In this document: in pieces, positions 1,269-9,715 of the stretch
Layout: every line of letters begins with the position of its first letter
Position numbering within the stretch: position 1 is the stretch's first letter
Assembly (NCBI GenBank): GCA_017654855.1
Contig: CM030338.1
Coordinates: forward strand, 1,426,001 to 1,490,000
Direction of reading: 5' to 3'
Length of the DNA stretch: 64,000 nt
Source: Podospora anserina
Taxonomy: Eukaryota
The notes under the pieces: generated by a model
The model's input: the letters and a program-made list of their open reading frames with translations, nothing else
Told to the model about the DNA's origin: nothing
The model's database searches: none
Translations under genes and position numbers: made by a program

Positions 1269-2388
1269 CGTTGAGATTTTAGAGGGCGGTTGGCATCGGG
1301 AATGAGACAGACAGACAGACAGACAAGAAGAAGTTTGTGATGGGAGTACCTTACCTTGGAGCAGCTATTCGGGAAGAAAAAAAGGATCTTGTGTGGTCGG
1401 AATCCTTGCTTGACAACGAGACAGGATTCCCGAGAATGGAAAAATCGTCCGAACATTCAGCCTAAGCCAAGGAGGGGAGGGGTCGGGGGGGTGTTACACG
1501 ACAGACAGATAGCTAAAAACATCAAAAAACACACAACATCGAGGATTCCCCAGCGGTCACCCAACCTGAGTCCTGGTTCGACTCTCAGCCATTTTGAAAA
1601 TGAGGGCAGAGCGGACGGGATACCGTATATTTTTTTCTATAGCTGGATATGGTCGTATGTGCTATCCAACTCCGGAATTGGGCCCTTTTGCATCCTCCCG
1701 TTGATATCGTCAGACAACAGACATGATGAATTCCCGAACAAATCCAACAAGTTTGCTGTCCCATCTCTTTCGCTTATTTGAGGGATGGATGTATGAAGAA
1801 GATATTCTCAGGTTATAATTCAACACATCAGTCCTCAAAAGCCACACTGGGGTGAGGAACAATACAAAAAAGAAAAACACAGAAAAAGATCTAGAAGTAA
1901 ATAAGTCAGTAGCACCGCAGCAAAATTTTGAGCCCATCACATCATCATGATTCTCTCAGTCAAGTAGCGAAGGAAAGACAAAAGGTCAACATCAATTATT
2001 CCAAAAACACAGATTTTAAAAAGGCATCCCCCATGTATCTAACTCGGCCTTCTCTCATCCCAAATACAGCATGTCTCTCTCTGCCTGCCACGATCTATCT
2101 AGTATACATCCAACAAGCTGCAAAAGACTAAACAACAAACAAAGATGCTATTTCAATTAACTCCACGCTTTTTTGGTTATCATGAGCTTTTCAAGCGGAC
2201 CAAAATGCTGCCTTCACACAAGATTTTCCCCTCCTCCCCTGATCACCTCTCCTCCCCTCCACACCCCTTTTGCCGCTCTTTTGCCTTTTCTTTTGTTTGT
2301 GTGTCCAGCCACCCCAGTCAAGTCATAAACCGTCATCAGCTTTGGATCTTGTATGTACATCTGGGTCGTCAGAGAACCGGCTGTCAAT

Positions 2389-3966
2389 CTATGCCGACGC
2401 GGTGGTGGTGGACTCGAGGGTGGCCTCGACAACAGCTGAGGGCTGGATCTCGACCACGGCGACGAGGTCCTCGGGCTTGACCTCGGCGATGTAGTTGCCC
2501 TTGCCGTTGTAGCCATTGTAGCCATTGTAGCCATTGTAGCCATTGTAGCCATTGTAGCCATTGTAGCCAGGGCCGCCATAGCCATTGTGACCAGACTTGT
2601 GCCCTTCATTACCGTAGCCAGGACCGCCATAGCCGTTGTGGGCAGACTTGTGCCCTTCGTTGCCATAACCAGGGCCGCCATATCCAGACTGGTGGCCACC
2701 ATAGTTTTGCCCATCGTGTCCATGCTTGTTCCCATCATGACCGTACTTGTTCCCATCATGACCATACTTGTGCCCTTCGTTACCATAGCCAGGGCCACCG
2801 TAGCCAGACTCATGAGCGCCATAACCAGAGCCGTGCCCACCGTAGTTGTTGCCGTCAGGGCCACCATAGCCAGAACCGTGAGAGACACCACCGTAGCCGC
2901 CCTGGCCGAACCTGTGACCGTCGTGACCATAGCCAGAGTTGTGACCGTCGTACTTGTTGCCATAGCCGTCATTGCCGCCATGGACAGAGCCATGGCCACC
3001 GTAGTTGTTGCCGAAACCATTGCCGTAGCCGTCGTAGTTGCCATGGCTGTTGTGGGCGCCAACATAGCCGCCGTAACCACTGCCGCCATAGTTGCCACCG
3101 GGCCCGCCATAACCGGAGCCGTGACTGCCGTAACCGGAACCGTGACCACCATAGTTGTTGCCGTTCCCGTAGTTGTCACCGTGTCCGCCGTAGTTGCCGA
3201 GCCCACCATAGTTGTTACCGCGGCCACCATAGTTACCACCAGGTCCATAGTTATTGCCGTGGCCACCGCCATAACCGCCGTAACCGCCACCGTACCCGCC
3301 CTGACCACCATAACCCCTCTGGCGGCCATCGCAGTTGTCATAGTTGTGGCTATTCTGGTCGCAGTAACCCTCCGAATCATAGCCGGAAGGTGAGTAGCCA
3401 GCGCCGTAGCCCCGACCACCACCATAGTTGTTGCCGCCATAGCCGCCATAGCCGCCACCACCGTAGCCCTTGCCACCGTGCTTCTCGATCCATCCGGGGG
3501 GAACGGGGCGGAGGCAGCGGATGCGGCCGTTGTACTTCTTCTCAAGGTCGTAGCAGCCCTGGAAGAGGATGCCAAAGTACTGGCCACCGCACTCGAACTT
3601 GCCGTGCTTGTCCTGAAAGCCACCGAAGGCGGCAGCCAGACCGTCAACGTAGACGGACTTGCGGTGGTCGGCTACTTTGGTCTTGAAGAAACATGTGTCA
3701 GTAAATCAACAAGCAAGCCTTGATGGGGCAGGGAGGCTTACATCGCAGTTGAGCTTATTGCGGTATTCGTTACCGTTGTTCTTGTTGCAGTCGCAATTGT
3801 CATAGACGGTGAAGTCGCTGTAGCTGGCCAGATCCGTGACGGCAGTCAGGTTTACCGCAGGAGGAGGGATAGTGTTGAGATCGAGCTCGGAGGGAGTCGG
3901 GGCCGCTCTGATGCCGTGGGCAAGCACCAAGGCCGCGAGGCCGGTGCGGAGGGTACTCAAAGACAT
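2389..3966 (-). CDS. Secreted Gly/Tyr/Asn/His-rich low-complexity protein with Cys-rich N-terminal domain, ~505 aa, 2 exons (3966-3742, 3681-2389)
   Basis: ATG at 3966 gives a signal-peptide-like start (MSLSTLRTGLAALVLAHGIRA-APTP). A 60-nt intron (3741-3682; GTAAGC donor, TACTGAC branch, AAG acceptor) joins in phase to a stop-free 1293-nt exon reading TKVADHRKSVYVDG...FECGGQYFG...GGYGGNNYGG...(GYN)7 G...TTTASA*. Codon usage (GGC/TAC/AAC) is typical of fungal genes. The track's 2214-3647 and 2587-3393 ORFs are off-frame shadows. Confidence 0.85.
2503..2568 (-). repeat. Coding 9-bp tandem repeat (GGCTACAAT)x7 encoding (Gly-Tyr-Asn)7
   Basis: gccattgta occurs 6 times perfectly plus one variant copy on the plus strand. 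Confidence 0.9.
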
Positions 3967-5057
3967 GACGCTGGTACTCAGAATGCTGCTCAAAGAAATG
4001 AGGAGAATACGAGGCCGATTGACTGGATGAAAGAGGATGATGGAGGAATGAGCTGATGGAGGCCTGGGAGAGATACTGGGAGCTGGAGTTCTTATGTTTT
4101 GGCTTTGCCCCTATCTTCGCGCCTCATGTGCGGATGGAATGCCCCTTGACCTCATCTCAGTATCATGAACATGACTCTTGGGCTGCTATGGACGAGAGTC
4201 CGACTGTTGATGTCCACGATGTGGAGGGGGCTAGGGGATGGGACCATGGTTTTGCTGTCAAGTTTGATCATGGAACACGAGGCCAAGATTGAGTCCGCAG
4301 ACAACCGATCTGTCGAGTGGTGTTTTCCCTGAATTGGTCCCTGACCGAAGTTAAGTCGTCCCCGTGGCGTCGGAGGTGCGAAAGTCAGAAGAATGGGGAC
4401 TGAGATATGGCGAACAAACTGGATTGGCTGCTAAAGTGCGGAGGGCGTGGTGCCTTAGTGTTGGTTTCCTCGTGGCGGTTGCCGCCAAAGCTTCAGTTGA
4501 CTTCATGATCGTGGTGGTAGCATTGGTTGCCGTATGCACTTATTTGAGTCAGCATCTTCTGGAGTCTGCCATGACAGAGGGGATGTCCGAAGAGAAGAAA
4601 GCGGTCTCTTTGGTAGCTCTTTCCTTCTCCCCACGATGGCTCCTTCCCTGTCTGCGGGCTTTCCCTCTGTGCTCTTTCATTGTCATTCCACCGTTCCTTC
4701 TTGACCCTCACGGCTCCTTCCTCCTCTTGAGTCTTCATTTCCCTTGGCTCCTTCCATTTCACATACGGTACAGGAGTGTGTATAAAGTGTGCCAACGTTA
4801 CCTATCTCATATGTAAGTAGGGTACACGCTCCACACATCAATGCTGCTCTGTTCTGCAATTCATCAATCCTTCCCCCTATCTTCGTATCCATCATGTCTC
4901 AATAAACCCCTAAACCCCATAAATGTCAAGTAAATCAAGAAAGCAAGCAAGAACCCAACCCATTACCAATCCCAAGCAAAACAAACCCACCGCTAGACTC
5001 CAAACCCAAAACTCCAGACCATGCCCTCTTCTTCACTCGACCCATCCCACTGTCGAT

Positions 5058-5480: not shown

Positions 5481-6506
5481 GGTTGCGGTTTTGGGGGGCG
5501 GCTCCCTTGGACCACTCTCCCTGCCTAGCTAGCTGGCGATGGGTAGCTTGATTTCTTGTGTCTTGTTTTACTTTGGTTATGGCTGTTGCTGGCTTGGGCC
5601 GATATGGATGTGGTAGTTGTTAGCGACGGCGGTATTCTGTGAGGTGCGATCAGGACAGATAAACACGAATAGACAGGCGGTAAGGCAGCACGAGTCGACA
5701 GCAGGCAGGAAAGCACGGGATCTGGTTCGGATATCGGATACTGGCTCTCTCGAGTCAACACCTCGGGATCGGGGATCGCTATCGGGGGCGTCGGGAGTGT
5801 CGGGATTGGGCTACTTCGGCAGCGGTAATGAACAAGTGGTGAAACAGACGACAGTACAGGTGCAGTAGATATCCCACGACAAGGCAAACAAACACAAGAG
5901 AATAGTTGGGAAGTTATCACGGGATGAACCCCGAACCTTGATGGATAGGATGGAGAAACAAGCAAATGGCAAGCAAGTGTAATGATGACCAGCGATAAGA
6001 CAAGGGCGCGTGGGCACACCTGGCAGCGCTGATAAAGAACGAGGTTCCCAGTGAAGGCCAACCGCATTTGGGGGAACGCCGGAACGACGTCACGAGCGTT
6101 AGCCCCCAGGCGGAGCTGTTGGGTGTGGTCAAATGCGGGGTCGACTCCTCCCCCTGTCACTGGGCAGCATGCTGAGTGCCGTGTGACCCCCTGAATGGTA
6201 ACAACAACACACCGAAGAGAAGCTGAAATGCAACCGTGGAATGGAAATATAGATAATCAAATATTTACAATATGAATGTTGTTGTGTGAGATCCAAAATA
6301 TTCTTGGTATCTATCTTCTCATCATCATCAGGCTTGTCTAAGCCTTTTACTTCCTCTCCTGAATCGCTGCGCGATACCTCGGGTGAGCGCCAAAATCGAA
6401 TCATCCCAACTCCAGAAAAACAAAGAAAAAATATGTACAAGGGAATGAAAATAAATATGCAATGCCACCACCTCCTCTCACTCCCCTTTCATCTCCTATC
6501 GTGTGA

Positions 6507-8357
6507 CTACCACGAAAAGGCCTCCTCCACAAAGTCCACAGCTCCGTTATACTGCTTATTTCTCACTGCCCGCCTGACCTCATCGCTCAGCGCGCCTGGC
6601 CCGCACACAGTCACAGCCATGGTGCCGATCTGGTTCTCCATCTCCATACCCAGCAGTGTGTCGATGTTGGGTCGGCCGGGGAACATCTGTACTGTCGAGC
6701 TGGGGCTGTGAATTTCCTTGGTCGAGCGAGGCCTGCTGACGAACAACATGATCTTGAGAACCTCGCGGCGCTTCTCCATGGCCAGAATCTCGGTCATCCA
6801 GGGGCGAATCCATTCGAGGTGCTCAGGAGTCTGGATCACCCAGACCATGATGACCTTGCGAGCAGCAACTGTCCCGTTGCTATAACCAGCGACGAGATCA
6901 CGGACGTGGGGAACGGCCTGGGTCACACCAACACCACCGGCAAAGAGCATGACTGTTCCGTACGAGTGAAGTTGATGAGAGCCGCGATAGGGACCCTCGA
7001 CAAGACAACGGGTAACAAGCTTTCCGTCGGGGTTGGCGGCCGCGCGGCTGTAGAGTGCACCAGTGAAGCCGGTGCGGCCACGGATGATGAAAGAAACAGA
7101 CGTCTTCTTCTGATACAAGACATCGTGGCGGTCCATCGGGAGACCCTTTTCACCGTCGAGCTGCTCAGCTTCGTCGCTCCAGGCTACGGTGAAAGGGTGA
7201 GATTGCCAGAAACCGATAGATGGCATGTAAAGGTAGGCGTGCTGTCCGGGCCGGAAATCCCAAGGGCGGGCCATGCTGACAGTCACGCGGCAGGCACCGC
7301 CAGGGAGAGCCTCAACGAGAGTCTTGGTCCCACCGGCTCCGATGTTGCGATATCCGACACGAAGGAAACGGGCAGCACGGTCAAAGATCCACAGGGCACA
7401 AACGGCGTAGAGATACTTGAGCTGTGGGAGCTTCTTGAGGTCGAGGTGGTACCAGAGACCAAGAACCGCCAAGATGGCGAGGGCGATATGGGCAATCTTG
7501 AAGGTCTCATAGTAGGCGTGTCTGAAAATGCTGGATGCCTGAATGCAAAGGGCAATCATGGCACAGGTCGACTACAGAACTTTGTTAGCCATGTTCCTCG
7601 ATACATTAGATCCAAGATAACTTACAATGAATCCCCACATCAGAAACTTGACGGTGATGGCAGTGTTGAAAGCAGCGCTCCAGCCATTCTTGGAAGCATT
7701 GCCAACCAACCAGGCCACTGTGTGGGCAACAGACTCCAGCATGACAATACGCCCAAACCAGCGGTGAAGAAGATTGAAGGTGTCGAAAGAGATGCCGAGA
7801 AGATTGATGAGAGGGTTGTTGCGGCCAGCCATGAGGAACAGAGGGATCATGTTGACAACAGCGAGGTATCCGGTCCTGTTTCTAATGAGTGCCGCAACTT
7901 GACCAAGAGGGCCGGAGAAGTCGATGGTCATGACGCAAAAGGCAACGTTGGTGCCAAGGTAGGCCAAGAGGAAAAAAAGCTGAAGACGGGACGGAAGAGT
8001 GCCGACATTGAGGGCCGAGCTGATCTGGAACTCGCGGTTGTGCCTCTTGCTAAAGATGGGTGCGTAGAGGATGTTCTTCTGGAACCATGAGTAGTTGTGG
8101 GATGGCTTGGCGAAGTATCGCTGTTGGTCGTTGTGAAGGCAGGTTACCGTCCTGACATATCGGACCAAGACTGTGGTAACTCGCCAGATGAGCAGGGCTC
8201 CCGAGACTGCACCCAGAACAATCAACAAGTAGTGAGAAAGCATCTTGTTCACGACAGCATGATCCACGCTGCTGGTAGCTCCTCCCACTGCTGCTCCATG
8301 GCCCCCTCCACCTGCCTGCGCGCCAGCTGTGGCATTTCCCGGAACCGATACCGACAT
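6507..8357 (-). CDS. Ferric/cupric reductase transmembrane component (FRE family), ~598 aa, intron 7625-7572
   Basis: Heme-ligand motifs FNLLHRWFGR...AHT and YETFKIAH...WYH, FAD-binding HPFT, NAD-binding VEGPY and FAGGVGVT, C-terminal VCGPGAL...EEAFSW. A GTAAGT...GCTAAC...TAG intron joins the two track ORFs in frame. Confidence 0.93.
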
Positions 8358-9715
8358 GTTGAATCCTCCCAAATTCTGTCGAGTTATTTTGATGTTCCTG
8401 TCTCCAACAAAAACTGAATCGTGCTCCACTCTATCTTAGTAGGTGGTGTTTGGTAAGTTGAATCGCAACCTATGTCAAAGGTTCATCTGATGTCGCTGAA
8501 TGCTGTCGAAGCTGTACGGGCCACCGATTGTTTTGCCGAGTAGAAAAGAACGAATGCTGTGGTATCCAGATTTCCTGTCCAAGTCCTGCTGGAAGGTTTG
8601 AATACCTATTGTTGAGTGGATTGAGGTGGTGCTCAATGGGATGATGATCAAGGAACGTTGAGCTGCGTGACTGTGATTGCTGATTGTCTGTCTGTCGTCT
8701 TTTTCCCAGTACCCCGATATCTCGCTTTCTATGTCGAATGCCAACCAGATGTGGACAAAAAAAGAATGAAATTGTATGTTTAAACCACACAATGCGTGCC
8801 TCAAGGTCGCAAGGACAGAAGAGAAAGCTCTCGGCCAGTCAAGGGAGAGTGTTGATAGCAATCAAAGGGGGTGGAAAGAATGAAATGCAAAATCAATGCA
8901 GGCTGGGTGGTGCAAGGGGAAAGAGAAGGAAGTCGTCCAAGGACGAAAGATGATGGCAGATCTAGCCAAGAATCCAAGAAACCGGGGGACTGGGAGACAG
9001 ATGAAGGGAGAGACGATGAAAATTGAACGGCTTGTCGACATGGGGGGGTGCGGGAAGCCCGCCAGGGGGCAGCGACCCCTCCTATTTCCTAATTGGGCAT
9101 CTTGCACCGGTCCGTACTGACGCGTCCCGGGGTTGGTACAAGATGGTATTTTCACAATTCCACGGCTAAACTTGCACGTTACAGCGAAAGATGGCGCTGC
9201 TGATTTGAATTTCAATACCATATCTTACCATCCGATCCTGTCTCACCACCCAGCCCCAATGTTCACCTTATGACCCGCGACAAGAATCGAGACCCGACAT
9301 CTGTCTTGCTCCCAGACCAGACATGGCCGCTTGCTGCAACAAGCTCGCCCTGCTTCTTCTGCCAAAGCTCGGCTGGAAGCTGATCCCAGCAAAACCACTT
9401 GACTGGATTCCCGGAGACACATGCTTCGTAATGGTGGTCCGTCCGCTCATGCATTGGCCACCAGGCCTCCTCATCCTCCGCAGCGCAGCGCGGCGGTGCG
9501 AGTGCAAACAGGTACGGGATGCCAAGACAACGCACGAACGGAGCTTCGATTGGGCAAAGGTGAAACGCCACAGGGGAGACCATCGCCTGGGTTGTCCCTG
9601 TGCTGATCCAAGTTCCTCAGCACATCACCTCCTCCCACCACCACAAGAAAAGTCCCTCGGCCAGACTCCCAGAAAATCCAAAAGCCAAGCCCGGCTAGGC
9701 ATCACGACGTAATCT

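Follow-up and report, generated by a model that had tools for sequence, protein, structure and literature searches.

The Gene and Its Transcripts

The window, a 64,000-nt stretch of Podospora anserina DNA (assembly GCA_017654855.1, contig CM030338.1, positions 1,426,001 to 1,490,000 of the forward strand), carries near its beginning a two-exon gene on the minus strand (3966..3742 and 3681..2389 in window coordinates, separated by a 60-nt GT..AG intron), which encodes a spliced product of 505 amino acids (aa) and corresponds to the annotated gene Pa_7_5640. Exon 1 (3966..3742) begins with the ATG at 3966 and provides 75 codons, covering a putative signal peptide, a proline-rich linker and the start of a cysteine-containing head (Cys 58, 60 and 74). 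The intron (3741..3682) has a GTAAGC donor, a CTGAC branch-like site, an AG acceptor and an in-frame TGA (3708..3706), while exon 2 (3681..2392) remains open across 430 codons up to the TAG stop codon (2391..2389). Because the intron length is a multiple of three and the TGA is in frame, a stop-to-stop list of open reading frames (ORFs) displays the gene as two pieces in the same frame, the long one lacking an ATG. This explains why the original prediction, which was made from the sequence alone, called the gene hidden, a term that suits a plain ORF track but not the annotation, where the existence of the gene was already known. The coding sequence (CDS) has a third-position GC content (GC3) of 68%, compared with a GC content of 53% for the window.

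Transcript support was sought in four coded runs (X1, X2, X3 and X7, from four studies), the contigs of which were aligned to positions 1800-4600. The labelling of these runs as RNA was a guess, and their RNA nature is shown by the intron-skipping contigs themselves. In three of the four (X1, X2 and X7, from three studies), a contig joins 3681 to 3742 and drops exactly 3682-3741, 60 nts that read CT..AC on the plus strand; the longest spliced contig, from X2, spans 2540..4128. The X3 contig stops at 3742, and its 15-nt loose end corresponds to 3667-3681, in agreement with the splice. No alternative joint is listed among the contigs of the four runs over this interval, hence usage of the downstream out-of-frame TAG acceptor, which the original prediction had considered as a competing outcome, was not seen. 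Pa_7_5640 is absent from the alternative-splicing events in Table S2 of PMC9801653. Contig depths (788 in X1 and 670 in X2) were not used for ranking expression, and two runs of study P2 with almost none of the words of the stretch were counted as no evidence.

The splice junction can also be read, independently of the contigs, from a protein of another fungal family, P0003 (KAM7194989.1, 405 aa, from Naviculisporaceae sp. PSN 640). By BLASTP, residues 55-75 of exon 1 align with residues 47-67 of P0003 and residues 1-67 of exon 2 with its residues 68-134. Since the two alignments abut, the splice junction is colinear with a protein that is itself intact. The predicted gene model, including the 3682-3741 intron, is thus borne out by the contigs of three of the four runs and by this colinear alignment.

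In the 5′ untranslated region (UTR; 3967..4128), the published transcription start site (TSS) maps to approximately 4087 (Table S1 of PMC9801653) and the X2 contig reaches 4128; the sole upstream ATG, at 4127, opens an 11-codon ORF. The 3′ UTR (1952..2388) is delimited by the published transcription end site (TES) at approximately 1952 (same table). In X1 and X3, the contigs extend over 1800-2536, while X2 has two separate pieces, 2290-2536 and 1851-2096. In the stretch 1576-2388, the X1 and X3 contigs run about 960 nts from the end of the CDS to beyond 1800 and the X2 cover is split; such cover could reflect a long or variable 3′ UTR or a further transcript downstream. On the other side of the gene, the X1 contig that contains the spliced gene extends 1355 nts beyond 4600, toward the Yippee-like gene Pa_7_5650, the published 3′ end of which maps to approximately 4805-4808; this extension may represent overlapping UTRs, read-through or an assembly across same-strand neighbors.

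The contigs of all four runs carry a C at position 3062 (plus strand), where the window has an A, which changes a GTT codon into GGT and a Val into Gly within GYGGYVGAH. The change makes the repeat unit more regular and reflects a difference between strains or, alternatively, a mistake in the window assembly. The three other differences between the runs and the window (1969, 4016 and 4121) all lie outside the CDS.

Three long ORFs in wrong frames over the repeats (2214..3671 on the minus strand, 2440..3393 and 2481..3686 on the plus strand; 485, 317 and 401 codons, respectively) were rejected as by-products of low complexity, and none of their ATG-started forms occurs in the protein collection. 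These ORFs (2214-3686, both strands) stem from the repeats rich in Gly codons and could mislead ORF-based annotation.

Identity with Pa_7_5640 and Genomic Surroundings

The correspondence with Pa_7_5640 was established from the surroundings of the gene and from published coordinates. All seven long ATG-to-stop ORF products examined elsewhere in the window were found by exact look-up in the protein collection, in clusters that hold the orthologues PODANS_7_5670, 5720, 5740, 5750 and 5800 together with genes of sibling Podospora species. The ferric reductase gene located 2.5 kb upstream (6507-8435, minus strand) is Pa_7_5660 (PMC3495915). Table S1 of PMC9801653 gives a single transcript for Pa_7_5640 (TSS 1407396, TES 1405261, 5′ UTR of 121 nts and 3′ UTR of 439 nts), and a single offset places the CDS ends of Pa_7_5640 at 3966/2391 and those of Pa_7_5650 at 5481/5060, each at most 1 nt from the start or stop codon. 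Taken together, the neighboring clusters, the position of Pa_7_5660 and the coordinates of Table S1 identify the predicted gene as Pa_7_5640.

In Table1.xlsx of PMC4835503, Pa_7_5640 is described as a “Putative protein of unknown function” and assigned to the bin “Orphan”. An old automatic annotation in Table S2 of PMC3869774 attaches to it 30 mutually inconsistent Gene Ontology (GO) terms (cell wall, collagen trimer, nucleus, ATP binding and others), which evidently derive from low-complexity BLAST matches. A full-text identifier search found no main-text mention of Pa_7_5640; among the identifiers Pa_7_5610 to Pa_7_5660, only Pa_7_5660 appears in full text, and PODANS_7_5630, 5640 and 5650 as well as Pa_7_5635, 5645 and 5655 have no occurrence in the full-text literature search.

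The neighboring genes are of the housekeeping type (Yippee-like, ferric reductase, CLU/eIF3, forkhead, transporters, NSUN5, DUF1996-WSC and PalB) and offer no cluster context. Pa_7_5660 appears as two ORF pieces in the same frame (6507..7571 and 7572..8435) split by a single stop, a pattern that also marks the in-frame intron of Pa_7_5640. The numbering in Table1.xlsx of PMC4835503 passes from Pa_7_5620 to Pa_7_5640 without a Pa_7_5630. Below the gene, positions 1-2300 of the window contain no Pfam-recognizable ORF and include a long poly-T/A tract.

Architecture of the Protein

The spliced protein has the four parts that had been proposed, i.e., a signal peptide-like start, a head with six Cys, a body of about 330 aa and a tail without a glycosylphosphatidylinositol (GPI)-type end, and each was found where it had been placed. 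The signal peptide-like N-terminus (3904..3966, minus strand; residues 1 to approximately 21) reads MSLSTLR, GLAALVLA and HGIRA. The mean hydropathy of the first 25 residues is 0.75, and cleavage would fall near residue 21. A hydrophobic N-terminus is also found in the homologues described below, with a similar n/h/c pattern in P0003 and at an internal Met in P0006. The proline-rich linker that follows carries a single N-x-T sequon, at N39.

The Cys residues of the spliced protein, even in number, are located at positions 58, 60, 74, 106, 118 and 131 in the head and 182 and 192 in the body. The part of the head encoded by exon 2 (3490..3681, minus strand; spliced residues 76-139) contains Cys 106, 118 and 131 and ends with CLRPVPPGW. 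It is followed by the low-complexity region rich in Gly, Tyr, Asn and His (2491..3477, minus strand; spliced residues 144-472), within which C182 and C192 form a small C-x9-C pair (3331..3363, minus strand). Such short Cys pairs in the body number five in P0006 and zero in P0003. Toward the end of the body lies the (GYN)7 array (2503..2569, minus strand), with a 9-nt unit, 7.4 copies and 98% matches, at which all of the RNA contigs break (ends at 2536, 2540 or 2569).

The C-terminal tail (2392..2490, minus strand; residues 473-505, followed by the stop codon at 2389-2391) is acidic and hydrophobic and rich in Ala, Val, Glu and Thr. Its 33 residues include a single Lys or Arg and six Asp or Glu, with a mean hydropathy of 0.48 and the hydrophilic end LESTTTASA; by eye only, it weakly resembles the end of P0003. 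The composition and hydropathy of these last 33 residues revealed no GPI-type hydrophobic signal, and no hydrophobic segment besides the N-terminus was found in the 505-aa product. The hydrophobic N-terminus, shared by the homologues, the even number of Cys and the lack of any other hydrophobic segment amount to a secretory architecture, and the protein is probably secreted.

The Head Domain and Its Relatives

The head could not be assigned to a described family. None of the three Pfam queries (exon 1, exon 2 and the head alone) matched a family at E ≤ 10, and in the Protein Data Bank (PDB) the sequence search gave one match at E 1.3, while a profile of the head alignment gave none at E ≤ 10. 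The absence of a match to a characterized family in Pfam and PDB is what the original prediction had expected. Hydrophobins have eight Cys in the arrangement C-CC-C-C-CC-C and were rejected, as the head has six Cys, no adjacent CC pair and no Pfam match; CFEM, cerato-platanin, LysM and the other Cys-rich fungal domains of Pfam were set aside for want of a profile match at E ≤ 10.

When the 71-aa portion of the head encoded by exon 2 was compared exhaustively, by phmmer, with 1.84 billion representatives (E ≤ 0.001), five proteins were retrieved, four of which are credible relatives (E 3e-13 to 1.8e-5). The best is P0003 (E 3e-13, 48% identity), followed among the named species by P0006 (KAK1751897.1, 647 aa, E 6e-6) from Echria macrotheca (Schizotheciaceae); P0005 and P0007 (110 aa) are fragments without a species name that give credible head matches. 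The fifth protein, the bacterial P0004 (1673 aa), was judged a product of chance or convergence, as only a Cys-free stretch of 27 aa was matched, repeated 6 to 7 times. The motif concerned, VA.N.QSV.(V/L).GL.AEFGGF...G.F, lies between residues ~789 and 1613 of P0004 and shows 48-52% identity to residues 3-29 of the exon-2 head. Other searches added nothing to the phmmer set: word-index searches gave 0/18, 2/7999 and 2/752 candidates, a metagenome scan with the single head confirmed none of 598 pattern matches, and the P0003 head scored no higher than 0.86 in the ESM Atlas, short of the 0.9 required for a lead, with no usable match for the exon-2 product. Within the window, no paralogue was found (best off-target tblastn E 0.066).

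Ten columns (A, G, C, G, L, G, C, C, P and P) are invariant in all five aligned heads. They include the three Cys of exon 2, and the terminal motif C-x-[RK]-P-x(1,2)-P-x-x-[WY] is likewise present in the five sequences. A fourth Cys, upstream, aligns in P0003 by BLASTP and in P0006 by eye. The family core thus consists of four Cys, and the Pa_7_5640 protein has an additional pair (C58 and C74) that is not found in P0003 or P0006; the head does contain the six Cys that had been described, only four of which are conserved in the family.

Across different families of the Sordariales, the heads are 40-48% identical. P0003 and P0006 share with the Pa_7_5640 protein a hydrophobic N-terminus, the four conserved Cys, the ending C-[LI]-R-P-V-P-x-G-[WY] and a long low-complexity body after the head. 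The P0005 fragment stops 16 residues into a Gly/Ser/Asp/Tyr stretch and the P0007 fragment shows no such body. P0003, P0006 and the P0005 fragment provide the homologues with both a head and a low-complexity body that the original prediction had called for. The bodies themselves have little in common apart from composition. After the head, P0003 has 18% Gly, 17% Tyr, 15% Asp, 10% Asn and 6% His, whereas P0006 has 16% Gly, 12% Asp, 10% Asn and 9% Pro; both are acidic (Y/D/G/N/H and D/E/N/G/Q/P bodies, respectively), and the best high-scoring segment pair in the repeat region has an E of 1.5.

The Pa_7_5640 protein and its Podospora-complex orthologues are absent from both large protein libraries, although the seven other ORF products of the window are all present. 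Very low-complexity proteins may have been dropped during library building. Because the libraries seem to miss such proteins, the count of four relatives is a lower bound. The head belongs to a tiny uncharacterized family that has so far come to light only in some Sordariales, and this relationship ends the orphan status of the gene. AlphaFold2 models, built from five aligned sequences each, reached a mean predicted local distance difference test score (pLDDT) of 40.8 for the P0003 head and 55.4 for the exon-2 head of the Pa_7_5640 protein. The head may be a small, disulfide-stabilized, all-beta-looking domain, short beta strands being the sole reading that these low-pLDDT models permit.

Composition and Tyrosine Spacing of the Body

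Region 144-472 (329 aa) consists of 41% Gly, 16% Tyr, 13% Asn and 8% His, with 25 His and 5 Arg. The motif counts that had been given for it are correct, with GYGGPGYGNEGHK three times, GYN seven times, HGSGYG four times and GHDGNK twice in the spliced protein. At the DNA level, Tandem Repeats Finder reports arrays of 9 nts x 7.4 (2503-2569), 51 nts x 2.4 (2563-2686) and 21 nts x 4.3 (2698-2787).

The aromatic residues, 54 in the 333 residues between head and tail, are spaced more evenly than composition predicts. The standard deviation of the gaps is 2.64, against 5.40 ± 0.70 in shuffled sequences, none of 5000 shuffles being as low. There are no adjacent aromatic pairs, against a shuffle mean of 8.5 (0/5000 shuffles with as few), and no gap exceeds 14, compared with a longest gap of 25.9 in the shuffles. 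The Tyr residues stand mainly in the contexts GYG (24), NYG (11) and GYN (7), and aliphatic residues amount to 2.7%. The His residues are found mostly within GHG, GHD, SHG and GHK. With an assumed His pKa of 6.3, the computed net charge of the region falls from +25.5 at pH 4.5 to +18.1 at pH 5.5, +5.1 at pH 6.5 and −3.6 at pH 7.5. The body is disordered and fast-evolving and, in P. anserina, has the pattern of a “sticker-and-spacer” polymer.

Two other interpretations of the repeats were discarded. A repeat protein processed by Kex2 would have dibasic sites in the repeats, and none was found there, RK and KK occurring only in the head (exon-2 residues 7 and 48). A collagen-like protein was rejected as Gly keeps to every third position for 9 triplets at most and Pfam Collagen gives no match.

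Expression in Contact with Bacteria

In P. anserina, oxidative-stress genes and genes for small secreted proteins are reported to respond chiefly to bacteria (PMC4835503). In Table1.xlsx of this study, Pa_7_5640 has values of +4.74 at 2 h and +4.10 at 6 h after transfer of the mycelium onto lawns of Serratia fonticola. The negative entries of the table, the smallest magnitude, which lies close to 1, and the Table 1 printed in the paper lead us to read these as log2 fold changes. On this scale, the gene is induced approximately 17- to 27-fold in vegetative mycelium within 2-6 h of contact with S. fonticola. In ageing cultures (days 6-14, with final growth in liquid medium), its expression is 0.39-1.74 tags per million (tpm; Table S4 of PMC3869774). 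Pa_7_5640 is absent from the examined supplements of PMC2441463.

Comparison with Known Systems

A keyword search of the literature for characterized fungal Gly/Tyr-rich secreted proteins gave comparators only. Some of these are animal proteins. The His-rich beak proteins (HBPs) of squid are soluble when their His are protonated and form coacervates near neutral pH through Tyr contacts, and the Nereis jaw protein NVJP-1, with GYGHG and GYGGH motifs, undergoes a pH-induced beta transition (PMC9999432). Like them, the Pa_7_5640 protein has a disordered, Gly/His/Tyr-rich body with Gly-flanked Tyr behind a secretion-type N-terminus, and its computed charge switches from about +18 at pH 5.5 to about −4 at pH 7.5. 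However, these are animal proteins without detected homology, while the fungal protein is rich in Asn, has a Cys head and lacks a GHGxY array, and its 8% His contrasts with the 27 mol% of NVJP-1. The analogy is therefore functional only. Tick-GRP77, also a secreted, disordered glycine-rich protein (GRP) with periodic aromatic residues, undergoes phase separation through these aromatics and then gelation to an adhesive (PMC11794139). It differs by its reliance on cation-pi contacts between Arg and aromatic residues, whereas the body of the Pa_7_5640 protein has 5 Arg in 329 residues, is far longer and stands behind a head.

Among fungi, SsGsr1 of Sclerotinia sclerotiorum is a secreted wall protein with Gly-rich tandem repeats that vary between species and alleles, which its authors relate to plant wall GRPs as scaffolds (PMC10269696). 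Compared by description only, it differs in being GPI-anchored and in having repeats of 11 aa close to the N-terminus, a Ser-rich C-terminus and no Cys head. The plant wall GRPs themselves have (GGX)n or GYGG-type repeats in addition to a signal peptide and have been proposed to serve as scaffolds for wall deposition (PMC10269696). They belong to another kingdom, show no homology to the Pa_7_5640 protein and have no equivalent of its head. Plant wall GRPs are stress-induced and cross-linked through Tyr. The prion-like domains of the FUS/hnRNPA1 type are rich in Gly, Tyr, Asn and Ser, with evenly spaced aromatic “stickers”; they occur in cytosolic or nuclear RNA-binding proteins, in contrast to the signal peptide-like start and disulfide-type Cys of the Pa_7_5640 protein.

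Proposed Function and Alternatives

At this locus, a spliced and regulated gene encodes a conserved Cys head of an unclassified family and a disordered body with evenly spaced Tyr. The reading that we favor, with a probability of roughly 45%, is that the protein is inducible and extracellular and either self-associates or undergoes cross-linking. In the low-pH secretory pathway, the His-rich region would be strongly cationic (below approximately pH 6), keeping the protein soluble. At pH 7 and above, its near-neutral charge would permit self-association at the hyphal surface into a condensate or gel, which might mature into a beta-rich or oxidatively Tyr-cross-linked material. The head could serve as an anchoring or recognition module, and the near silence of the gene in standard cultures, together with its induction on bacterial contact, would correspond to production on demand. 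The self-assembling or Tyr-cross-linked polymer of the original prediction fits with the Tyr spacing and the His charge switch, but the homologues share neither, and it stays a conjecture.

A bolder and doubtful version makes of this protein an inducible extracellular “armour” with His gating and Tyr stickers. Hyphae would secrete it on contact with certain bacteria; it would remain dissolved along the acidic secretory route and would condense on the wall, where dung imposes a neutral-to-alkaline pH. The head would hold it there, and the oxidative burst that comes with bacterial contact would cross-link it through Tyr. If true, it would provide a fungal counterpart to the oxidative cross-linking of plant wall structural proteins, with a new head domain and a phase-separating body.

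Several observations weigh against a self-associating or cross-linked extracellular protein. In the body of P0003, 2207 of 5000 shuffles have a gap standard deviation as low as the observed one, and the charge is −31 at pH 7.5; in that of P0006, the corresponding values are 4709 of 5000 and −55. Even Tyr spacing and a near-neutral isoelectric point are therefore not common to the homologues, and the proposed physics may be species-specific or irrelevant. The 41% Gly makes the region unlikely to be a classical amyloid former, and the AlphaFold2 models, at the pLDDT values above, give no fold for the head. The induction comes from one study and from S. fonticola only. In its table, the cells of Pa_7_5640 are blank for S. 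marcescens and for a seventh column, “Colonne1”, which we infer to be vegetative incompatibility. Lastly, the selected transcript of Pa_7_5640 in PMC9801653 was taken from one of 37 runs, ERR2224049, which belongs to a “sexual development” set, and this origin could point to a developmental role.

The alternative that survives best, although unlikely, is that of a defense effector acting directly on bacteria, with the Gly/His/Tyr-rich body or its fragments as antimicrobial peptides or with a toxin- or lectin-like head. Gly/His-rich antimicrobial peptides exist in plants and arthropods, and the repeat region of the Pa_7_5640 protein is cationic below pH 6.5. The strong and early induction on S. 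fonticola lawns would suit such an effector, and the authors of that study suggest that bacteria-induced secreted proteins may target bacterial cells directly (PMC4835503). However, the lack of dibasic sites in the repeats leaves no evident means of peptide release, the region has no net positive charge from neutral pH upward, the bodies of the homologues are strongly acidic, the table reports no induction by S. marcescens, and a protein of 505 aa falls outside the class of less than 250 aa considered in PMC4835503.

The protein could instead be a developmental structural component of sexual structures, i.e., of the fruiting-body matrix or of an ascospore sheath or appendage, which appears rather improbable. 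The origin of the sole selected transcript argues for it. Retention of the PaKmt1 intron is expected in ERR2224049 (PMC9801653), and the unspliced form of PaKmt1 is found in mycelium aged 4 days and in fruiting bodies of 2 and 4 days (PMC8105982), hence this life-cycle run is probably a 4-day mycelium or fruiting-body sample. In addition, the named homologues belong to the Naviculisporaceae and Schizotheciaceae, where ascospores often carry gelatinous appendages or sheaths (PMC7565071), but with two genomes this link is a coincidence. Furthermore, the gene is induced within 2 h in vegetative mycelium and is absent from the 47,494 characters of supplements examined for the PaRid sexual-development paper (PMC6709928). 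The spore or fruiting-body role envisaged in the original prediction thus stays conjectural, the sole published condition-specific expression being bacterium-induced and in vegetative mycelium.

Less probable still is an extracellular metal-binding or metal-buffering protein, whose His residues, joined by Asp in the case of the homologues, would act as chelators of Zn, Cu, Fe or Ni and whose self-assembly would be secondary. Zn triggers the assembly of the Nereis jaw protein (PMC9999432), the repeats contain 25 His, P0003 has HY(D/N)G repeats and an HHGHRGH stretch, and the ferric reductase gene lies 2.5 kb upstream. However, the His content is far below that of the jaw protein (8% versus 27 mol%), the gene has no occurrence in the examined supplements of a copper-regulation study, and the neighboring reductase gene Pa_7_5660 is blank for bacteria and hence not co-induced.

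A young orphan gene without selected function, whose transcription and splicing would be incidental, is scarcely credible: the 2016 BLASTP bin “Orphan” and a low-complexity body almost wholly changed between homologues would fit, but the head is 40-48% identical across Sordariales families with four Cys and C-x-[RK]-P-x-P kept, and the open exon 2 of 430 codons, the GC3 of 68% against a window GC of 53% and the strong, specific regulation all stand against it.

Significance

The relationship of the heads as a family, the four-part architecture and the quantitative pattern of stickers and charge came out of this analysis and were not met with in a literature search by gene identifiers and a handful of composition keywords. 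Much work has been devoted to secreted low-complexity Gly/Tyr/His proteins in animal biomaterials and plant walls, and almost none in filamentous fungi. Pa_7_5640 offers a case in a genetically tractable model fungus, with a confirmed gene model, a conserved and unclassified head and a published hint of a bacterial response. If the body neither condenses nor cross-links outside the cell, the protein would be one more lineage-restricted orphan. If it does, fungal wall remodeling under microbial attack would become testable and a new pH-switchable sequence would be available for materials work.

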